Virus record (IMG/VR): IMGVR_UViG_3300046507_000435
Location: 64,001-76,960 of that record
DNA from: a virus
Taxonomy: Duplodnaviria; Heunggongvirae; Uroviricota; Caudoviricetes
Direction: 5' to 3' (one strand)
DNA length: 12,960 bases
Of the stretch, positions 1 to 8,421 are shown piece by piece. Below the pieces are notes generated by a model, which worked only from the letters and a program-made list of their open reading frames with translations, was not told the origin of the DNA and searched no databases. Made by a program: the position numbers and the translations under genes. The stretch's first letter is position 1; each line of letters begins with the position of its first letter.

Positions 1-1480
1 ACGGTGGATGAATTCCACGAATTTAAAAATCTTTGGTACTCGTCGCGCCTGACGGGCGTAAAGGGCATGGGCAACAAGACCGGCTCGCAAAAGGCGTTTG
101 ACATGTACAACAAGATCCGCGTGCTGCGCGATTCGCCGACCGGTACCGTCACCGCGATGACCGGCACGCCGATTTCCAACAGTGCCGTGGAAATGTACAC
201 CATGATGCGCTACCTGGCCGCCGGCGAGCTGCGCGACATGGGGCTGGAGCATTTTGACGCCTGGCGCGCCCAGTTCGTCAGTGCGGACGCCGGCTGGGAG
301 CCGACCGAAACGGGCCGCTTAAAGGAAGTGAACCGTCTGGGCCGCACCTGGTCGAATATGCGCTCGCTGATGGACCTGTACTACAGCTTCACCGATTCGG
401 TGGACAACGACGCCATCAAGGCCGCCTATGCCGAGGACAACAACGGCGCCGCCTTCCCGATCCCGCAAGTGAAGGGCGGCGATCGCCAGTCGATCGTGAT
501 CCAGCCGACCGCCGGCCAGATCGGCATCCTGAACGAGGTGCTGGATGGGTTCGACAACCTGGGCGACATCAAAGACCCGCAGGAGCGCAACAAGGCGCGC
601 CTGCGCCTGATGGACCGCGCCCGCAAGGTATCGCTGGACGTGCGCGCGGCCGATCCGCGCAACACCAGCATGGAAGCGGGTGGCAAGCTCGACGTGCTGG
701 CCGACAACGTGCACCGCATCTACCAGCAATGGGACGCCGATCGCGGCACCCAGCTGGTGTTCCTCGACCGTTCGGTCCCGAAGGCCAAGGGCGATGACGC
801 CGTGCTGAAGGAGTACGACGCCCTGGTGGCGGCCCAGAACGAAGCATTGCGCGCGGGTGACGAAGCTGGCCAGCGCCGCGCCGGCGAGGCGCTGGAGCGC
901 TTCGACCCGAACGAAATGGAAGAGCTGCGCGCCGCGCAGACGGGCGGCTGGAACGCCTATCAGCAGATCAAGGACAACCTGATCGCGCGCGGCATCCCAG
1001 CCGACGAAATCCGTTTTGTGCAGGAAGCGAACAGCGACGCCCAGAAAAAAGCCCTGTTCGACGCCGTCAACGACGGCACCGTGCGGGTCTTGATCGGTTC
1101 GACCCCGCGCATGGGCGCCGGCACCAACGTGCAAAAGCGTCTGGTGGCGCTGCACCATGCCGACGTGACGTGGAAGCCGTCCGACATCGAGCAGCGCGAA
1201 GGGCGCATCATCCGTCAGGGTAACTCGCTGCTGGACAAGTACGGCATGGACAAGTTCGCCGTCGAGATCCTGGCCTACGCCACCGAGCGCACCATCGACG
1301 CCAAGATGTGGTCCTTGAATTCGTCCAAGCTGCGCACCATCAACGGCATCCGCAAGTATGACGGCGCCTTCTCGATGGACTTTGAGGACGAGGAATCGGT
1401 CAGCATGGCCGAGCTGGCCGCGCTGGCATCGGGCGACCCGCTGTTGCTGGAGCGTGTCAAACTGATGTCGGAGATTGACA
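1..1480 (+). other. SF2 (SNF2/DarB-type) helicase domain of the giant protein
   Basis: Walker B DEFH (7-18), motif III TGTPISNS, motif V LIGST..MGAGTNVQ, motif VI WKPSDIEQREGRIIRQGN. These match my recollection of P1 DarB-like methylase-helicases. The methyltransferase and Walker A would lie upstream of the window. Confidence 0.9.
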
Positions 1481-4400
1481 AGCTGGAGCTGCTCAAACGC
1501 CAGCATGCCCGCAAGGAATGGGGCATCATCAGCCAGATCGAGGACGCCGAGCGCACCATCGCGCGCGCGCCGGCCCGCATCGCCGCCCTGCAGCAGGACA
1601 TGGGAGTGCTGAGCGCCGGCCAGGCGGCCATGGAAGCGGCCGCCGCCCAGCGCCGCGTCACGGTCGAGGGGCAGCAGTACAGCGACCCGACCGCCGCGCG
1701 CGCCGCCGTGCACGCCGCCGTCCAGACCCAGCAGCAGGGCGACGAGAAGGCCAAGGTATCGATCAACGTGGGCGGGCGCCGCTTGACCACGATGGACGGC
1801 GCCAACAGCGCCATCACCACGGCGCTGGGCGACAGCACGCCGTTTGCCATGACGGTGGGCGAGCAGACGCTGGGCGCGCGCACCGACGCGGCCCGCGCGC
1901 TGGCCAACATCGCCCAGCAGCAATCGAATAAGCTGGAGGCCGGCGAGGAAGTGACGGTACCGGCCGGCCGCTATCTGGGTCTGCCGCTGGAAATGACGGT
2001 GGTGCACAACAACCACGGCGGCCACTATGTCACCCTGGCGGTGCTGCGCGCCGACGGTTCGACCCTGCAGACGGCCGACACGAATATTCGTGCCGATACC
2101 GCCTACACCACCTCGTTCCTGCGCGGTGCGGTCGAGAAGCTGGAAGAGGCGCTGGAGCCGGGCCGCCTGTCGTACCAGATCAGCTATCAGGAAAAGGCGC
2201 TGGCCAGCGCGCAGGCCGGCCTGCCGGACCTGCAGGCCCGCAAGGGCGGCGCCTGGCCGCAGCAGGGCGAGCTGAACGCCAAGAACGAACGCCTGTCGCA
2301 GGTCATTTCGCTGCTGTCGTCCGGCGTGCAATCGAGCGCGCCGGGTGTGCGCTTCTCGATGAATCCCCTGATGAACGCCGACGGCAGCTACCGCCGCCAG
2401 GCGCCGGTGGCCGGCGGCGCGCTGTTTAGTCGCAAGCGCATCGACACCGACGACCAGCTGGTCAACGTGTACGCGCAGATCGCGCAGGACGACGACGCTT
2501 TCCGTATCCCCGACAGCGGCGCGCGTACCCTGGCCGGCGTGATGGCCGACATGGCGCCGGGCGTGGCCGTGGACGACTTTTATAGCGCGGGCCACCGTGA
2601 AGAGGGCGACCCGATGGCCGACCGCGTCTGGCATATCAGCGCGCAGGATGGCACTGGCGCCAACGCCTTTGTGTACCGCAATACCCGGGCGCGCCAGATC
2701 TGGCTCGACATTTCGAACTGGAAGGAAGGGCGCTCCGGCAACCGCATCTATCAGGCGGTGGCCACCTGGGCGCACAATACCGGCACCCAGTTCATCGGCG
2801 ACCCGGCCGGCCTGTCGGACAAGGCACTGTACCGTCGCACCGAGCAGATGCTGTCGTCGGCGCTGCGCCATGGCACCACCCAGCACCTGGCGCCGCACGC
2901 GCGCCAGCAAGAGGCCACCCACACCAAGAACGGGGAAGCGATGCGCCCGGTTCATTGGCGCGATGGTCATGACGCAAAGAACTTGCGGGAACTGTTGCTT
3001 TCGTCCTACACTAACATCCGCACTGTCTTCCCTGAAATCGATGATGTCCATTACAACTTCTCCACCGGCCAGTTTGAGCGCGCGCCCGCATCCGTTCGCG
3101 CATCTGGCGGGCCATTACTGGCTGACCAATCCGCTGCGGGAGAACCAGTTGCTCAGCACGGGCTGGGAGCCGGAGCAGATCGAGGCGCTGCCGGACGATC
3201 AGTTGACGGCGCTGATGAAGGACAGGGGCAGCTCGCACGAGTGGCTGCAATTCCTGTCACTGACGCGGATTTCCGCGCTCTTGGGGAATCGGTTCGCCGA
3301 GCCTATGACGTACTCTTCCCTTCCGGTCGAGGAGCGTTTACGCCTCCGATTGGCGTGTCTGATCTTAAAAGAGCGGCTCTCACCGGTACCGTACTACGCG
3401 CAGAAGGAAGCGAAGTGGGGCGAGCAGTTCTGGATCACGTATCAGAGCGGCTGTTACAACGAGTAAGCCCGCAGTTGGCCGGCCTGCTGTATAGCCCGAG
3501 CGCGGACTACTTCCGCGAAAGTGACGAATTCTCCCCGGCCGTGATCGACGCGGTGCCCCATCACGGGGTGCTGCCGCTGGCCGCCACGCTGTCGGGCGCC
3601 GATCTGCTGCAGGCGATGAAAGACACCGAGCAGCTGAACCGCCAGCTGATCAAGGAAGGCATCGCCCCGGTGCGTGCGCTGCGCACGGCGCCGAGCAGTG
3701 ACTTCGCCCTGGCGCGCCAGATCGGCGCCGCGCTGGGCATTCCGGTGCACTTTGTTGGGCAGAACAGCGCTTTTGAGGGCGTGGCCCACAAGGGCGTGGC
3801 CTTCCTGTCCGAGGGCATGCGCAACCCGGAGCTGGCCATCGCCGGCCACGAAACGCTGCACGCGCTGGAGCAAAGCAATCCCGCCCTGGGCGAGCGTCTG
3901 CGCCAGCAGATCCGCGCCTACCTGAAGGCGGGCGTGGTGCAAGAGCGCCAGCTGCAGGAATACGCCGCCAGCGGCTTCCAGGATGTCTCGCTGGAGAAGG
4001 CCGAGGGCGAGGTGCTGGCCGACATCAACGGCGCCATGTGGCTCGATCCGCAATTCTGGTCGGATCTGGCCAAGGCGGACGCCTCGCTGTTCCGCACCGT
4101 GGCCTACAAGTTCATGGAGCTGGCCGCCAAGGCGATCAGCGCCCTGCGCAGCCGCCGCTTTGACGTGGCGCGTCTGGTCACCGACGTGGCGGCGGTGCGC
4201 GCCATCATGGTCGATACCTGGGCGCAGCACGCCCAAGGCCTGCACGCGCGCGACGACATCAGCGCGCCGGCGGCCTTCTCGCCTGCGGGCGGCGACCATG
4301 CCGCAGCACTGGACAAGGCCCGGGACGCCGATCGCCAACTTGCCGAGGTTGCATTACAATACGGGGGCCGCGACGCCTACCTGGCGCAGAAAGCGGCCGG

Positions 4401-7400
4401 CGCCACGCTGCTGACCTATCCGCAGTGGTTGATCACCAAGACGCCGAATTTCAAGCAGTTTTATGGCGATTGGGAGGCCAAGCATGGACCCGCAGCAGAC
4501 GCAGCAATTCATCTCGGCCATCAAAACGGCGAAGAGTACGGCGGACCTTACAGCGTTGCTGATGACGCTGCCGGCGGCACCCCTTCCTTCTTTGGCCAGT
4601 CCGGACCCGTACGAACGATTGGAGGCACTGGAGAATCTGCCGCGCGCGAGCCAGCCGTCTACTATCACGGAACTACGGCGGATATTGACGCCTTCGACCT
4701 GAACCACCCGGGCCGCAAGGACCACGGCTGGCTGGGCACGGGCGTCTACGTCACCAGCTCCGAGTTCGTCGCCCATGGCTACGCCGACATCAAGGGCACC
4801 GAGGGCAAGAACATCGTACCGGTGTTTGTCGCCGTCAAGAACCCCTATGTGGCCCCTGCCGGCCTCAAATCCAAACTGAAAAACGCCCCGCGCGAAGTGG
4901 TCGACGCCTTCACCGCGCGCCTGGCCGCCGATGGCCACGATGGGGTGGTGTTCGAAACGCGCGCCGGCGCGCAGGAGCTGGTGGCCTTCAACCCGGCCGC
5001 CGTCAAGTCGGCCATCGGCAACAATGGCGCCTTCGACAAGGGCAATGCCGACCTGCGCTTTAGCAAAACCGACGGCGCGGCGAAGGCGGTCAAGATCGCA
5101 TGGTCGGACGACCATGAGCCGGGCCAGAACCCAGCGGGCATCAGCGCCTATGTCGAGGGCCACGAAGGCAAGGCCTTCATGTTCGCCGAGGATAACGCTG
5201 ACGGCACCTACTCGATTCAGGAGTCGGGGCTGCCTCCCGAGCTGCGCGGACAAGGCTACGGCGTCAAGATGTATCAGGCCTTAATCGATGAAATGGCGCG
5301 CCGTGGCCAGGTGCTGACCTCGGATGTCTCCGTATCGCCGGCCGCCCAGCACGTCTACCAGGCGCTGCAGGATCGCGGCTACGGTATCGAGCGCAATCCC
5401 AACGTGAGCGCCGATCCGGACACGGGCGCGCTGGAGTCCAATGACGGCAAGCCGGTCTACCGCATCATCCCGCGCGATGGCGGCCTGCTGTTCAGTCGCG
5501 CCGGCATCGGCGAGGCGATCGCCAGCGCCGCCAACAACGCGGCCGCGCTGCGCCTGCCGGCCGGCTACCTTGTCGGCGACCTGTTCAACCAGTCGGGCAA
5601 GATCAGCTGGTGGCACAAGACCATCGGCACCATGGAGAACCTGGCCAAACGTCAGCCGGCCTTCGCCCGCGTGTACGACGCCGTGCAGAGTTTTATTGGC
5701 GACATTTCGCGCTACGCCGTGGCGGCCGCCGACCTGGCGCCGACGCTGCTGCCCAAGCTGGAGGATTTCAAGGACGTGTTCGGCAAGGACCGCAAGAAGC
5801 CGCTGACGGCCGAGGACACCAAGGCGATCGGCGCGCCAATCTTCGAAGGCACGCTGTCGTGGGCGCGTGACGCCAATGGCAAGCCGGTCAAGATGGAGGT
5901 GCTGGAAGCGCAGGCCGCGCAGCTGACGACCGAACAGAAGGCCCAGATCCTGCTGCAAAAGGGCATCATCGATGACGGCCAGAATCAAGCCTGGCTGGGC
6001 CAGTCGGGCATGATGTACCAGAACATCATCGACAGCAAATTTACCAAGACCCAGCTGGCCGCCGGCGTGGTCTGGACTGATCCGGAGCTGCGCGAGCTGT
6101 TCAGCCTGAACGATCACCAGATCGCGCTGTACCGCGAATTCCGCGCCGCCCTCGACAAGAGTTTGACGAACCTGTCGATCAGCGAAATGGTGAAGTTCGC
6201 CGGCAAGGATGCCAAAGGCATGCTGGAGCAGGCCATCGCGGCGCCGGACATCAAGGCCGCCGGCGAGCTGCTGCGCGACCACTTCATTGCCCTGGCCCAG
6301 CAGGAGCCGGACAAGGCCGACATGCACCTGACCACGGCCAGCCAGCTGATGGATCTGGCCGACAAGGGCGAGGATCTGATTCGCCGCGGCTACGCGCCGC
6401 TGTCGCGCTTTGGCAAGTACACGGTGTACGTGCAGCAGGGCGAGGAACAGGTGTACTTCGGCATGTTCGAAACCCAGTATGAGGCCTCCAAAATGGCGCG
6501 TGACATGGCCGCCGAGCATCCGGACGCCACCGTCACCCACGGCACCGTGTCGGAGGATGCCTATAAACTGTTCGCCGGCGTGTCGCCGGAAACGATCGAG
6601 CTGTTCGGCTCCATGGTCGGGCTCGACAGCCAGGCCAACGCCGCCAGCACCGAGGTGTACCAGACCTATCTGAAGCTGGCCAAGAACAACCGCAGCTCGA
6701 TGAAGCGCCTGATCCAGCGCAAGGGCATCGCCGGTTTCTCGGAGGACGCCGCGCGCGTGCTGGCCGGTTTTATTTATTCGAACGCCCGCCTGACCGCCGG
6801 CAACGCCCACCTGGGCGAAGTGGACGAGGCGATCACGGAGATTCCGAAGCAGCAGGGCGAATTGACGGACGCGGCGATGCAGCTGCGCGAGTCGATCCGC
6901 AACCCTGAAGGGGGCAATAAACTGGGCGGACTGATGTTCGCGCAGTTCCTGGGCGGCTCCGTGGCGTCGGCCATGGTCAACCTGACGCAGCCGGTCACCA
7001 TGACGCTGCCATATTTAAGTCAGTTTGGCGGCATCGCCAAGGCCGGCAGCCGCCTGGCGGCCGCGATCCGCGACGCCGGCAAGGAAACGACGGGCGAAGC
7101 GCACCTTGACGAGGCGCTGCGCTGGGCTGCCGACGAGGGCATCGTGGCGCCGCAGGAAGTGCACTACCTGCAGGCGCAGGCCGCCGGCAAGGGCGCGCTG
7201 CGCTCGGGCGACGGCACCCGCGCCGGCAACGCCCGCGCCGCCCTGAACAACGCCCTGTCCAAGGTCCAGCTGGGATGGGGGAAATTGTTCGCCATGGCCG
7301 AACTGACCAACCGCCGCGTGACCTTTATCGCCGCCTACCGCACCGCGATCGATGAGAACATCCCGAACCCGGCCAAATTCGCCGAAGAGGCGGTGTCCCA

Positions 7401-8421
7401 GACGCAGGGCACCTACAACAGTGGCAACAAGCCGCGCTGGGCCCGGGGCGCGATCGGCGGCGTCTTGATGACCTTTAAGCAGTATTCGATCGGCTATCTG
7501 GAGCTGTTGTCGCGCATGGCATTCGCCGGCGCGCCGGGCTCGAAAGAGCGCGCCGCCGGGCGCCGCGCGGCGCTGTACATGCTGGCCGTGCTGTTCCTGA
7601 TGTCAGGCGCCGACGGCTTGCCGTTCGAAGCGGATCTGGAGGACGCGATTGACGGCCTGATGCAGCGACTGGGCTACAACTACTCGACCAAGCGCGCCAA
7701 GCAGGCGTTTTTGACCGACGTGCTGGGGCAGGGCGGCGCTGATTTTGCCTTAAAAGGCCTGTCGAGCATGCCGGGTATGCCGGTCGACGTGGCGGGGCGC
7801 TTCGGGATGGGCAACCTGATCCCGGGTACCGGGCTGCTGACGAAAAAGCAGTCCTATACGCAGGATCTGGGCGAGCTGGCCGGACCGGCCGGGGACATCG
7901 CCAAGCGGGCGTTTTCGGCCACCGGCAAGGCGCTGGGCGGCGACATCGCCGGCGCCGCCATGGACCTGTCGCCGGCGTCGGTGCGCAATGCCGTCAAGGG
8001 CGCCGACATGATCGCCACTGGCCAGTACAGCGACGGTCGCGGCTACAAGGTCAACGATGTCACGCCGATGGAAGGGGTGTTAAAAATCGTCGGCTTCCAG
8101 CCCAACAGCACGGCCAACATTCAGGACGCCAAGGGCCAGGCGCTGGACGCGATCGCGCAGAACCGCATGCGGTCCTCCGAGATTCAAGAGCATTGGGCGC
8201 AGGGCATCGCGGCGCAAGATCCGGCCATGATCGCTCAAGCCCGTGAATGGCGCGACGACTGGAACAGCAAGAACCCGGACACGCCGATCCGGGTCAACAT
8301 GCCGGCGATCGCCAAGCGGGTACGCAGCATGCGTCAGGACGCGCTGAACCGGACCCAGAAGACGGCCCCGGCCGCGCTGAAGGCGACGGTACGCAACGAA
8401 CTGTCGGAGGTACGCCACTGA
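1..8421 (+). CDS. Giant DarB-like polyvalent protein, 5'-partial (helicase + GNAT-like + zincin + ART + GNAT + PLxRFG/LPD38-like); probably a virion-packaged, injected protein
   Basis: Frame 1 is open from base 1 (ACG GTG GAT GAA TTC CAC = TVDEFH), so GTG at 4 is an internal Val and not a start. Ends in TGA TGA at 8419-8424. GC3 about 90% in sampled stretches. Recognisable motifs are listed as separate features. Confidence 0.93.
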   Translation, partial: TVDEFHEFKNLWYSSRLTGVKGMGNKTGSQKAFDMYNKIRVLRDSPTGTVTAMTGTPISNSAVEMYTMMRYLAAGELRDMGLEHFDAWRAQFVSADAGWEPTETGRLKEVNRLGRTWSNMRSLMDLYYSFTDSVDNDAIKAAYAEDNNGAAFPIPQVKGGDRQSIVIQPTAGQIGILNEVLDGFDNLGDIKDPQERNKARLRLMDRARKVSLDVRAADPRNTSMEAGGKLDVLADNVHRIYQQWDADRGTQLVFLDRSVPKAKGDDAVLKEYDALVAAQNEALRAGDEAGQRRAGEALERFDPNEMEELRAAQTGGWNAYQQIKDNLIARGIPADEIRFVQEANSDAQKKALFDAVNDGTVRVLIGSTPRMGAGTNVQKRLVALHHADVTWKPSDIEQREGRIIRQGNSLLDKYGMDKFAVEILAYATERTIDAKMWSLNSSKLRTINGIRKYDGAFSMDFEDEESVSMAELAALASGDPLLLERVKLMSEIDKLELLKRQHARKEWGIISQIEDAERTIARAPARIAALQQDMGVLSAGQAAMEAAAAQRRVTVEGQQYSDPTAARAAVHAAVQTQQQGDEKAKVSINVGGRRLTTMDGANSAITTALGDSTPFAMTVGEQTLGARTDAARALANIAQQQSNKLEAGEEVTVPAGRYLGLPLEMTVVHNNHGGHYVTLAVLRADGSTLQTADTNIRADTAYTTSFLRGAVEKLEEALEPGRLSYQISYQEKALASAQAGLPDLQARKGGAWPQQGELNAKNERLSQVISLLSSGVQSSAPGVRFSMNPLMNADGSYRRQAPVAGGALFSRKRIDTDDQLVNVYAQIAQDDDAFRIPDSGARTLAGVMADMAPGVAVDDFYSAGHREEGDPMADRVWHISAQDGTGANAFVYRNTRARQIWLDISNWKEGRSGNRIYQAVATWAHNTGTQFIGDPAGLSDKALYRRTEQMLSSALRHGTTQHLAPHARQQEATHTKNGEAMRPVHWRDGHDAKNLRELLLSSYTNIRTVFPEIDDVHYNFSTGQFERAPASVRASGGPLLADQSAAGEPVAQHGLGAGADRGAAGRSVDGADEGQGQLARVAAIPVTDADFRALGESVRRAYDVLFPSGRGAFTPPIGVSDLKRAALTGTVLRAEGSEVGRAVLDHVSERLLQRVSPQLAGLLYSPSADYFRESDEFSPAVIDAVPHHGVLPLAATLSGADLLQAMKDTEQLNRQLIKEGIAPVRALRTAPSSDFALARQIGAALGIPVHFVGQNSAFEGVAHKGVAFLSEGMRNPELAIAGHETLHALEQSNPALGERLRQQIRAYLKAGVVQERQLQEYAASGFQDVSLEKAEGEVLADINGAMWLDPQFWSDLAKADASLFRTVAYKFMELAAKAISALRSRRFDVARLVTDVAAVRAIMVDTWAQHAQGLHARDDISAPAAFSPAGGDHAAALDKARDADRQLAEVALQYGGRDAYLAQKAAGATLLTYPQWLITKTPNFKQFYGDWEAKHGPAADAAIHLGHQNGEEYGGPYSVADDAAGGTPSFFGQSGPVRTIGGTGESAAREPAVYYHGTTADIDAFDLNHPGRKDHGWLGTGVYVTSSEFVAHGYADIKGTEGKNIVPVFVAVKNPYVAPAGLKSKLKNAPREVVDAFTARLAADGHDGVVFETRAGAQELVAFNPAAVKSAIGNNGAFDKGNADLRFSKTDGAAKAVKIAWSDDHEPGQNPAGISAYVEGHEGKAFMFAEDNADGTYSIQESGLPPELRGQGYGVKMYQALIDEMARRGQVLTSDVSVSPAAQHVYQALQDRGYGIERNPNVSADPDTGALESNDGKPVYRIIPRDGGLLFSRAGIGEAIASAANNAAALRLPAGYLVGDLFNQSGKISWWHKTIGTMENLAKRQPAFARVYDAVQSFIGDISRYAVAAADLAPTLLPKLEDFKDVFGKDRKKPLTAEDTKAIGAPIFEGTLSWARDANGKPVKMEVLEAQAAQLTTEQKAQILLQKGIIDDGQNQAWLGQSGMMYQNIIDSKFTKTQLAAGVVWTDPELRELFSLNDHQIALYREFRAALDKSLTNLSISEMVKFAGKDAKGMLEQAIAAPDIKAAGELLRDHFIALAQQEPDKADMHLTTASQLMDLADKGEDLIRRGYAPLSRFGKYTVYVQQGEEQVYFGMFETQYEASKMARDMAAEHPDATVTHGTVSEDAYKLFAGVSPETIELFGSMVGLDSQANAASTEVYQTYLKLAKNNRSSMKRLIQRKGIAGFSEDAARVLAGFIYSNARLTAGNAHLGEVDEAITEIPKQQGELTDAAMQLRESIRNPEGGNKLGGLMFAQFLGGSVASAMVNLTQPVTMTLPYLSQFGGIAKAGSRLAAAIRDAGKETTGEAHLDEALRWAADEGIVAPQEVHYLQAQAAGKGALRSGDGTRAGNARAALNNALSKVQLGWGKLFAMAELTNRRVTFIAAYRTAIDENIPNPAKFAEEAVSQTQGTYNSGNKPRWARGAIGGVLMTFKQYSIGYLELLSRMAFAGAPGSKERAAGRRAALYMLAVLFLMSGADGLPFEADLEDAIDGLMQRLGYNYSTKRAKQAFLTDVLGQGGADFALKGLSSMPGMPVDVAGRFGMGNLIPGTGLLTKKQSYTQDLGELAGPAGDIAKRAFSATGKALGGDIAGAAMDLSPASVRNAVKGADMIATGQYSDGRGYKVNDVTPMEGVLKIVGFQPNSTANIQDAKGQALDAIAQNRMRSSEIQEHWAQGIAAQDPAMIAQAREWRDDWNSKNPDTPIRVNMPAIAKRVRSMRQDALNRTQKTAPAALKATVRNELSEVRH
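2434..3070 (+). other. Divergent GNAT-like domain (cassette 1)
   Basis: IWLDISNWKEGRSGNRIYQAVATWAHNTGTQFIGDPAGLSDKA parallels the GNAT motif A/B pattern of the second GNAT in this protein (G.G..xYQA....A..G....D..xS..A). Recognised by eye, no HMM run. Confidence 0.5.
2983..3012 (+). promoter_or_regulatory. Putative internal sigma70 promoter upstream of nested ORF1
   Basis: TTGCGG (2983-2988) - 18 nt - TACACT (3007-3012), inside a stretch where the host frame uses atypical codons (TTG, CTT, ACT). Confidence 0.35.
3041..3466 (+). CDS. Nested +1-frame ORF1 inside the giant gene, about 105-141 aa, unknown function (candidate immunity protein)
   Basis: Hand count over about 3074-3463: GC3 about 82% in the +1 frame versus about 44% in the host frame, against about 90% elsewhere in the host gene. 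The product reads like a folded protein (HPFAHLAGHYWLTNPLRENQLLSTGWEPEQIEALPDDQL...KWGEQFWITYQSGCYNE). TAA at 3464-3466. Start uncertain: ATG 3041/3044, TTG 3074, or TTG 3149 (GGGAG 6 nt upstream). Confidence 0.72.
   Translation: MMSITTSPPASLSARPHPFAHLAGHYWLTNPLRENQLLSTGWEPEQIEALPDDQLTALMKDRGSSHEWLQFLSLTRISALLGNRFAEPMTYSSLPVEERLRLRLACLILKERLSPVPYYAQKEAKWGEQFWITYQSGCYNE
3496..4260 (+). other. Zincin-like metallopeptidase domain (cassette 2)
   Basis: IAGHETLHALE (HExxH at 3847-3861) with a downstream EGEVLAD acidic motif that could supply the third ligand. Such domains are known in phage polyvalent proteins. Confidence 0.7.
4332..4360 (+). promoter_or_regulatory. Putative internal sigma70 promoter upstream of nested ORF2
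   Basis: TCGCCA (4332-4337, 4/6 to TTGACA) - 17 nt - TACAAT (4355-4360, 5/6 to TATAAT). It coincides with a short run of rare host codons (CAA CTT GCC GAG GTT GCA TTA CAA TAC). Confidence 0.55.
4345..5064 (+). other. ART-PolyVal-type ADP-ribosyltransferase cassette (H-Y-E clade) (cassette 3)
   Basis: TLLTYPQW...TPNFKQFYGDWE leader, then YYHGT (H at 4666), GWLGTGVYVT (Y at 4747), AHGYA, GHDGVV, ELVAF (E at 4975), ending KSAIGNNGAFD...DLRFS. Matches the ART-PolyVal pattern from memory. Confidence 0.85.
4484..4702 (+). CDS. Nested +1-frame ORF2 inside the giant gene, 72 aa, predicted helical, unknown function (candidate ART immunity or regulator)
   Basis: GGAGG (4473-4477) 6 nt before ATG 4484. 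Hand-counted GC3 about 72% in the +1 frame versus about 53% in the host frame. Amphipathic product MDPQQTQQFISAIKTAKSTADLTALLMTL...YERLEALENL...ITELRRIL. The host frame here is a Gly/Ala-rich, linker-like insert. Confidence 0.72.
   Translation: MDPQQTQQFISAIKTAKSTADLTALLMTLPAAPLPSLASPDPYERLEALENLPRASQPSTITELRRILTPST
5068..5480 (+). other. GNAT acetyltransferase domain (cassette 4)
   Basis: Acetyl-CoA-binding motif A LPPELRGQGYG (RGQGYG 5245-5262), followed by KMYQALID and LTSDVSVSPAAQHVYQAL. Confidence 0.85.
5500..8418 (+). other. PLxRFG domain and LPD38-like C-terminal region
   Basis: YAPLSRFGKY (PLSRFG at 6397-6414). Helical and hydrophobic C-terminal region (MTFKQYSIGYLELL, GLPF, GMGNLIPG) resembling the ends of phage internal-virion polyvalent proteins. 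The LPD38 label is from recollection. Confidence 0.65.

Follow-up and report, generated by a model that had tools for sequence, protein, structure and literature searches.

The 12,960-nt window analysed here forms the end of a 76,960-nt IMG/VR virus record (IMGVR_UViG_3300046507_000435, Caudoviricetes, positions 64,001 to 76,960), and its positions 1-8421 carry, on the plus strand, the 3' 2,806 codons of a giant gene encoding a virion protein of the polyvalent, DarB-like kind described by Iyer et al. (2017, PMC5512222). Entirely within this open reading frame (ORF), on the same strand and in the +1 frame relative to it, lies a second ORF of 72 codons plus TGA (4484-4702, stop codon at 4700-4702). 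We regard this nested ORF, with a probability of about 0.75, as a genuine, independently translated small gene occupying the spacer between a metallopeptidase-like module and the ADP-ribosyltransferase (ART) module, ART-PolyVal, of the giant gene. Judged from sequence comparison, it is very probably a real gene under purifying selection, and that it possesses a start codon and Shine-Dalgarno (SD) sequence of its own can be assumed with nearly the same assurance.

Translation of the nested gene most likely begins with the ATG at 4484-4486. As reported in the initial annotation of this DNA, an SD sequence precedes it at a distance of 6 nt: GGGAGG (4472-4477, plus strand), which overlies the host codons W-E, is followed by the spacer CCAAGC and then by the start codon. 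An in-frame ATG further upstream (4463-4465, plus strand), which would yield a version of 79 residues, is probably not the start, as it is forced by the host codons Y-G and lacks an SD sequence. Position 4484 is preferred because in one homologous locus (L017) a TAG codon separates the equivalent of this upstream ATG from the conserved one. Altogether, 19 same-strand, alternative-frame ORFs of at least 60 residues starting with ATG are found in the giant gene, and a 5-nt SD core located 4-10 nt ahead of the start codon is present in only one of them, the nested ORF itself. Moreover, the GC content at third codon positions (GC3) over 4484-4702 reaches 0.722 when read in the nested frame but 0.528 in that of the host, in line with the contrast of about 72% versus 53% stated earlier. 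For the whole host gene GC3 is 0.84, and a frame plot reveals that the host-frame value drops at two places only, about 3060-3470 and about 4441-4620.

Relatives were sought with the host-frame protein in genome, viral and metagenome collections. Four further insert-bearing lineages with host-protein identities of 53-65% were obtained, namely a Burkholderiaceae metagenome-assembled genome (L002), two IMG/VR contigs (L004 and L011) and a metagenome contig (L008). In all four, the ATG is found at the homologous position despite differing host codons (CAT-G or AAT-G), and the +1 frame is open through a shared core, both frames thus being open in five lineages including the window. The SD-like site reads GGGAGG or TGGAGG in L004 and L008 as well as in two free-standing copies described below (L014 and L017), GGGTGG in L002 and GGGAGA in L011. 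The core of the product, about 55 codons long (4484-4647, plus strand), has a common order consisting of a helix around a conserved F, a helix of the type K-T-Q-E-D-F-T-A-A-L, an L-P pair, a proline-rich loop ending in D-S-P-D-P, and finally F-E-R-L-E-A-L. Indels in the host-frame insert of the aligned insert-bearing lineages come in multiples of three only. A compensated frameshift or assembly error was ruled out, since both frames are common to five independent assemblies and indels occur in multiples of three.

The distance from the host-frame leader F-x-x-W-F-G/K to YHGT is 62-72 residues in the window and the four related lineages, compared with 13-17 residues in other ART-PolyVal copies (L005, L019, L021), so the insert of about 60 residues proposed in the initial annotation is indeed present. 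The comparison of homologues suggested there was also carried out: every insert-bearing lineage found carries a +1 ORF with SD sequence and ATG, while ART copies with a short spacer are without such an ORF. Separately, one locus (L019/L024/L026, G703:C51:81340-82902) was seen to contain a 4,850-codon open frame with three tandem ART-PolyVal copies, each of them with a leader-to-YHGT spacing of 13 residues and without a comparable +1 ORF.

Which of the two frames is selected was assessed by Nei-Gojobori ratios of nonsynonymous to synonymous differences (pN/pS) on five sequences, with intervals from a column bootstrap. Over the insert (4483-4647), pN/pS is 0.66 (0.50-0.87) in the +1 frame and 1.14 (0.88-1.50) in the host frame. 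In the upstream and downstream flanks the relation is reversed, with 0.42 in the host frame and 1.13-1.27 in the +1 frame, as is usual when a sequence is read in a wrong frame. Restricting the comparison to three phylogenetically independent pairs gives a +1-frame value of 0.46, synonymous changes being in excess there at a binomial P of 2.8e-5; the host-frame value is then 1.33. In line with this, host-synonymous variability is 0.3-0.65 in the flanks, 0.05-0.23 over 4468-4647 and 0.42-0.52 over 4648-4701, and amino-acid identity is greater in the +1 frame for 39 of 45 pairs. By these measures, selection is shifted to the +1 frame for about 55 codons.

Selection on the +1 frame ends where the ART domain begins. 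The remainder of the nested ORF (4648-4702, plus strand) overlaps the first ART strand (EPAVYYHGT...FDL). The initial annotation had stated that the last codons overlap this catalytic strand and that both frames are constrained there. The overlap is confirmed, in that the last 14 nested codons coincide with YYHGT...FDL (host TAC at 4660). The dual constraint is not, as pN/pS over 4648-4701 is 0.23 in the host frame and 1.58 in the +1 frame, and the C-terminal tail of the nested protein is different or shorter in L011 and in two further copies, L012 and L013. Judged by pN/pS and synonymous variability, the last roughly 18 nested codons are an unconstrained passenger tail running to the first stop inside the ART coding sequence. 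In the host protein, about 57 insert codons would serve as an unconstrained and probably floppy linker: the host-frame spacer between GDWE and EPAVYYHGT (4477-4647, plus strand, 57 codons) is rich in G, A, P and S and poorly conserved, and an AlphaFold2 model of the host segment leaves it without secondary structure at a predicted local distance difference test (pLDDT) value of about 26, the whole model being poor (mean pLDDT 39).

A natural experiment is provided by copies of the small gene outside polyvalent genes. A profile of the nested protein, run against 1.84 billion representative proteins in two rounds, the second of which added one match, retrieved the called small proteins P0003, P0004, P0006, P0010 and P0013. 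At E < 1e-5 only such small proteins were matched, plus five long proteins with several short stretches each (E 5e-8 to 4e-5), which were not examined. P0004 and P0013 lie in two related integrative elements of low GC content (0.43), L014 and L017, with the gene order integrase, Gp49/HI1420 pair, VIT-VWA, MerR, small ORF and CobB-like SIR2. Here, the ART body is gone and only a remnant of the ART leader and of the first strand is recognisable in the old host frame; in L014, this remnant is broken by stops and its F-x-G-Q-S-G-P-V-R motif is decayed. The small ORF, in contrast, is intact in both elements, called as a gene and preceded by GGAGG at 6 nt from its ATG. Its stop lies 8 nt before the SIR2 ATG, where homology to the ART gene ends. 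A comparison of L014 with L017 yields a pN/pS of 0.36 for the nested frame, as against 1.27 for what is left of the host frame. The Arg of the F-E-R-L motif is kept through a switch from CGC to AGG that alters two host residues. As far as these sequences tell, the nested ORF outlives its host frame. In the nine intact contexts, it stands directly 5' of ART seven times and directly 5' of SIR2 twice. Beyond SIR2, the two elements were observed to differ in their nucleases, with PLD/DrmC-like and DnaJ genes in one case and HNH and DEDDh genes in the other (L014:1-10237, L017:1-12176), and both look like an effector or defence island with swappable cargo.

Further members or possible members of the family are few. 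In L013, the nested ORF stands at the front of an ART-like frame. The short metagenome contig L012 (L012:1-859) has a host-frame stop inside the insert, leaving a small ORF and a separately called ART gene, which the small ORF would then overlap; on so short a contig, this may be either a real split or a sequencing error. A decayed copy, L015/L016, has both frames open over the ORF span and hence does not discriminate between them. This copy (L015/L016:4600-5800; GCA_027490725.1, JAIXXN010000078) is an AT-shifted pseudogene fragment (GC 0.54) of a close relative of the polyvalent gene, situated between a resolvase gene and a type I restriction-modification locus; its host frame has many stops, and the +1 ORF was picked by the gene caller with a GTG start. 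The closest ART body outside the subfamily, that of Eikenella glucosivorans (L003:2858-3091, NZ_JACSGR010000001), also harbours a +1 ORF, of 77 codons, which ends just past FHGT, has GGGAGG 9 nt before its ATG and shows a GC3 of 0.74 compared with 0.48 for the host frame. An hhalign comparison of the nested family with this ORF was not significant (E 0.099), and it was left out of the family; the alternatives are a very remote homologue and an ORF that came to occupy the position independently.

Regarding the product itself, AlphaFold2, using a 10-sequence alignment, predicts three helices (residues 3-15, 19-27 and 42-50) and an intervening proline-rich loop (mean pLDDT 75, predicted template modelling score 0.37), which agrees with the helical protein expected from the initial annotation. 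Searches of the nested protein against Pfam, PHROGs, NCBIfam and PADLOC gave no family above threshold, and a Foldseek search of the model against the PDB gave no match at E of 0.001 or better, the model being small. With Pfam hits accepted at E up to 1, only HEAT_2 (14.7 bits against a cut-off of 27.7) and L27 appear, both below threshold. Among Atlas feature hits, HEAT-like proteins lead at 0.94-0.95, sharing 131-152 of 256 features, which is below the same-family level and loosely corresponds to single HEAT-like hairpins. Several identities were considered and set aside. A HEAT/PBS-lyase-like repeat was rejected as HEAT_2 stays below its gathering score, and a TnpV-like protein as no Pfam TnpV match is found at E up to 1. 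An o-spanin (Rz1) was rejected as there is neither a hydrophobic signal sequence nor a conserved Cys, the proline-rich loop alone being shared. A macrodomain or ADP-ribosylhydrolase (ARH) identity was likewise discarded, given no Pfam, NCBIfam or PADLOC match, a predicted fold of three short helices and no fold match in the PDB. The earlier statement that the protein has no macrodomain or ARH-like features holds in so far as no family match is obtained in Pfam, NCBIfam, PHROGs or PADLOC.

How the gene might be transcribed is suggested by a sigma-70-like promoter candidate about 125 nt upstream of the nested ATG (4332-4360, plus strand), composed of TCGCCA (4332-4337), a 17-nt spacer and TACAAT (4355-4360). 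It is the one such site found between 4100 and 4900, where 0.1 would be expected. The -10 hexamer, TACAAT, is invariant in six sequences. It draws on two rare codons, TTA (used for 8 of 235 leucines in the giant gene) and CAA, and host-synonymous variability falls to 0.15 at 4324-4359, over the candidate. Against a promoter of its own speaks that the conserved hexamers also encode the conserved host residues R-Q and L-Q-Y; hence, only the codon choice argues for constraint at the DNA level. From these sequence features we infer that the odds of the nested gene having its own promoter here are about even. If functional, the site could let the downstream part be expressed independently of the giant transcript.

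According to the interpretation favoured here, ribosomes guided by GGGAGG would begin at ATG 4484. The transcript used would probably originate at the conserved internal promoter-like site at 4332-4360; alternatively, initiation would be internal on the giant mRNA. The product would be a helix/proline-loop/helix protein with about 55 conserved residues and a tail. It might act by binding the effector module encoded immediately downstream (ART in the window, SIR2 in the free-standing copies), whether to inhibit it, to confer immunity or to serve as its chaperone. Binding to ART is suggested by the position of the gene and by one complex prediction, and is put forward tentatively, at somewhat less than even odds; inhibition of ART is more doubtful still and, on the whole, unlikely. 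In the prediction, which combined the ART domain with residues 1-56 of the small protein, a score of 0.52 was reached (0.52, 0.52 and 0.50 in the individual runs), the best of three controls being 0.00, with contacts agreeing to at least 95% across runs and a partner pLDDT of at least 77. The result was graded as weak support. The pass mark applied is reached by 58 of 80 solved complexes and by 2 of 110 mismatched pairs, and the band up to 0.60 holds seven of the 80 solved complexes together with both passing mismatches, these benchmark counts being rough guides, since custom alignments were used.

Several observations weigh against the interpretation as a whole or against its last step. First, +1-frame pN/pS values of 0.5-0.66 indicate only moderate constraint. 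Second, the family is rare, the members found being five lineages of polyvalent genes, the two free-standing copies, two short contigs and a decayed copy. Among 401 sampled Burkholderiales genomes, searched in six frames with a profile, only the one already known has it, and tblastn against cultured-phage and plasmid collections gave no match. Further scans of IMG/VR by profile and degenerate DNA pattern returned only two contigs already known. As for the proposed ART partnership, a passing complex score in the band up to 0.60 is false in most cases where the guess was not likely beforehand, and the family searches yielded neither a known inhibitor nor a macrodomain or ARH family. A virion-packaged effector made late in the lytic cycle does not obviously need an immunity protein. 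Finally, the gene is kept beside SIR2, a different fold, after the ART body has been lost. This retention speaks against a strictly ART-specific steric inhibitor; it would fit a regulator of effectors that consume nicotinamide adenine dinucleotide (NAD+), or a more general role.

The same retention favours the principal rival explanation, in which the nested gene is real and unrelated to ART, encoding an independent small protein that serves as cargo, in anti-defence or in some other accessory function. With many anti-defence proteins its core shares an acidic character and small size. On this account, the ORF would have come to lie inside a linker since neighbouring polyvalent modules fused by reading through it in another frame, and its adjacency to ART and SIR2 would reflect cassette history. 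Polyvalent genes are indeed mosaics whose modules act independently (PMC5512222). However, each of the nine intact contexts has an NAD+-using enzyme module directly following the ORF, the recombination junction in L014 and L017 falls 8 nt past its stop, exactly at the SIR2 start, and the ART complex prediction gave weak support rather than none. Overall, we consider this explanation a serious contender, if somewhat short of an even chance both for the unrelated cargo and for its origin by fusion.

Considerably less probable, and in fact quite unlikely, is a leader or upstream ORF whose translation rather than product matters, for instance through translational coupling to, or other control of, the downstream effector. 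The 8-nt distance between its stop and the SIR2 ATG in L014 and L017 would permit coupling, and an unconstrained C-terminal tail would be in keeping with such a role. Nevertheless, purifying selection on the amino-acid sequence of the core is not needed by a pure leader, and the polyvalent genes offer no downstream start codon to couple to, the ART sequence there being read continuously with the host gene.

A chance open frame in GC-rich DNA, conserved passively through the host frame or through a nucleotide-level (RNA or DNA) element, has become very improbable and is largely refuted. Genes of high GC content are rich in long alternative-frame ORFs, as the 19 counted above illustrate, and the most conserved piece of the nested ORF also encodes the conserved host motif F-x-G-Q-S-G-P-V-R. 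The insert, though, is near-neutral as read in the host frame but not as read in +1, and a copy with a dead host frame and a decayed host motif still has the ORF. A conserved RNA structure was looked for and rejected, the consensus giving -15.8 kcal/mol over 231 columns with a covariation term of -0.3.

Least credible of all is a programmed +1 ribosomal frameshift from the giant frame, giving a truncated polyvalent protein with an alternative C-terminus and without ART, GNAT and distal modules: the GGGAGG a short way upstream, which recalls prfB-type +1 shifting, would suit it, as would the TTT-T run found at 4459-4462, but the idea was rejected because the run is not kept (TTC-T in L002, L004 and L008), a +1-frame stop lies 12-20 codons upstream in every lineage, and the free-standing copies begin at the homologous ATG with nothing upstream (in L017 with a TAG just before it), the ATG moreover being conserved against varying host codons.

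The nested gene is thus best read as an independently translated small gene, and its surroundings in the host gene deserve brief description. Pfam detects Helicase_C, LPD37, ART-PolyVal and a weak GNAT match in the giant host protein. The ART-PolyVal domain comprises host residues 1550-1678 (4648-5034, plus strand; PF18760, 71.8 bits against a cut-off of 31.2), and the residues of its H-Y-D active-site configuration, as defined in PMC5512222, can be recognised in the alignment within YYHGT (H), GTGVY (Y) and HDGVV (D). Upstream of the nested gene, at about 3850-3870 of the window (host residues about 1285-1290), the host frame contains HETLH, an HExxH motif, which is kept in L004 and appears as HELGH at the equivalent place in L003. 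Pfam gives no match for this module at E of 0.01 or better; from the motif and its position, it is probably the zincin-like metallopeptidase that Iyer et al. describe as a frequent neighbour of ART.

A second, stronger frame switch into the +1 frame was noticed at 3060-3466, where host GC3 is 0.40-0.47 and GC at host position 1 is 0.7-0.95. The +1 ORF involved (2597-3466) is open for 307 codons, by far the longest in the giant gene, and its last roughly 110 residues are globular-looking and rich in W, Y, F and L. Neither Pfam nor PHROGs gave a match for the 3060-3466 region, and tblastn against the fetched loci found no homologue. The region is probably another nested gene, as the initial annotation had proposed under the name Nested ORF1.

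The kind of embedding described here is known. Rz1 within Rz in the spanin genes of phage lambda, and B within A as well as E within D in phiX174, are complete small genes which have start signals of their own, share the strand of the larger phage gene that encloses them and are read in +1 relative to it. The nested ORF resembles them in lying wholly inside a larger same-strand gene in the +1 frame, with both frames open, own start signals and purifying selection. Rz1 is a lipoprotein with signal sequence and lipobox Cys that partners the product of the gene containing it. In contrast, the nested protein has no signal peptide or conserved Cys, and the overlapped part of the host gene encodes no functional domain but a spacer within a multi-module protein of about 5,200 residues. 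Another parallel is comS of Bacillus subtilis, about 46 codons long and out of frame in srfAB, which encodes a regulatory peptide acting by protein binding; as in the present case, a small gene is hidden out of frame in a giant multi-module gene. However, comS overlaps a functional non-ribosomal peptide synthetase domain and we know of no free-standing homologues, whereas the nested ORF overlaps a neutral linker and also exists free-standing. Similarities can further be drawn to DarG/DarT, ParS/ParT and Tri1/Tre1, in which, as here, an ART-fold enzyme carried on a mobile element has a small gene closely linked to it. Unlike these antitoxins and immunity proteins, the nested gene is upstream and overlapped instead of being a separate neighbour, and it matches no macrodomain, ARH or known antitoxin family. 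As far as found, then, the type of embedding has precedents (Rz1 in Rz, comS in srfAB), while the gene family, its place in a polyvalent linker before ART and its free-standing life beside SIR2 are new. The founding survey of polyvalent proteins makes no mention of overlapping or nested genes (PMC5512222), and our literature searches found none described in polyvalent (DarB-like) genes.

Giant polyvalent (DarB-like) proteins are major, poorly understood weapons injected together with DNA by phages and conjugative elements. The present case illustrates that what is annotated as a linker in such a protein can be a separate gene, which is brought to light by frame-specific selection and by the natural experiment of a gene outliving its host frame. 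Standard gene callers miss nested genes of this type. More generally, when modules fuse into one multi-domain gene and engulf another gene, reading the latter in the wrong frame can produce what looks like a linker. The link to two different NAD+-using enzymes, in turn, affords a concrete and cheaply testable hypothesis. Going further, and with little expectation of being right, one may speculate that the small protein is the first representative of a family dedicated to regulating or neutralising the NAD+-consuming effectors (ART, SIR2) that mobile elements carry. With a promoter of its own inside the giant virion-protein gene, it might be made while that gene is silent, as in a phage-plasmid lysogen, and might shield its carrier, or cells that relatives superinfect, from injected ART. 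If this were true, polyvalent injected effectors would come with hidden, overprinted immunity genes.

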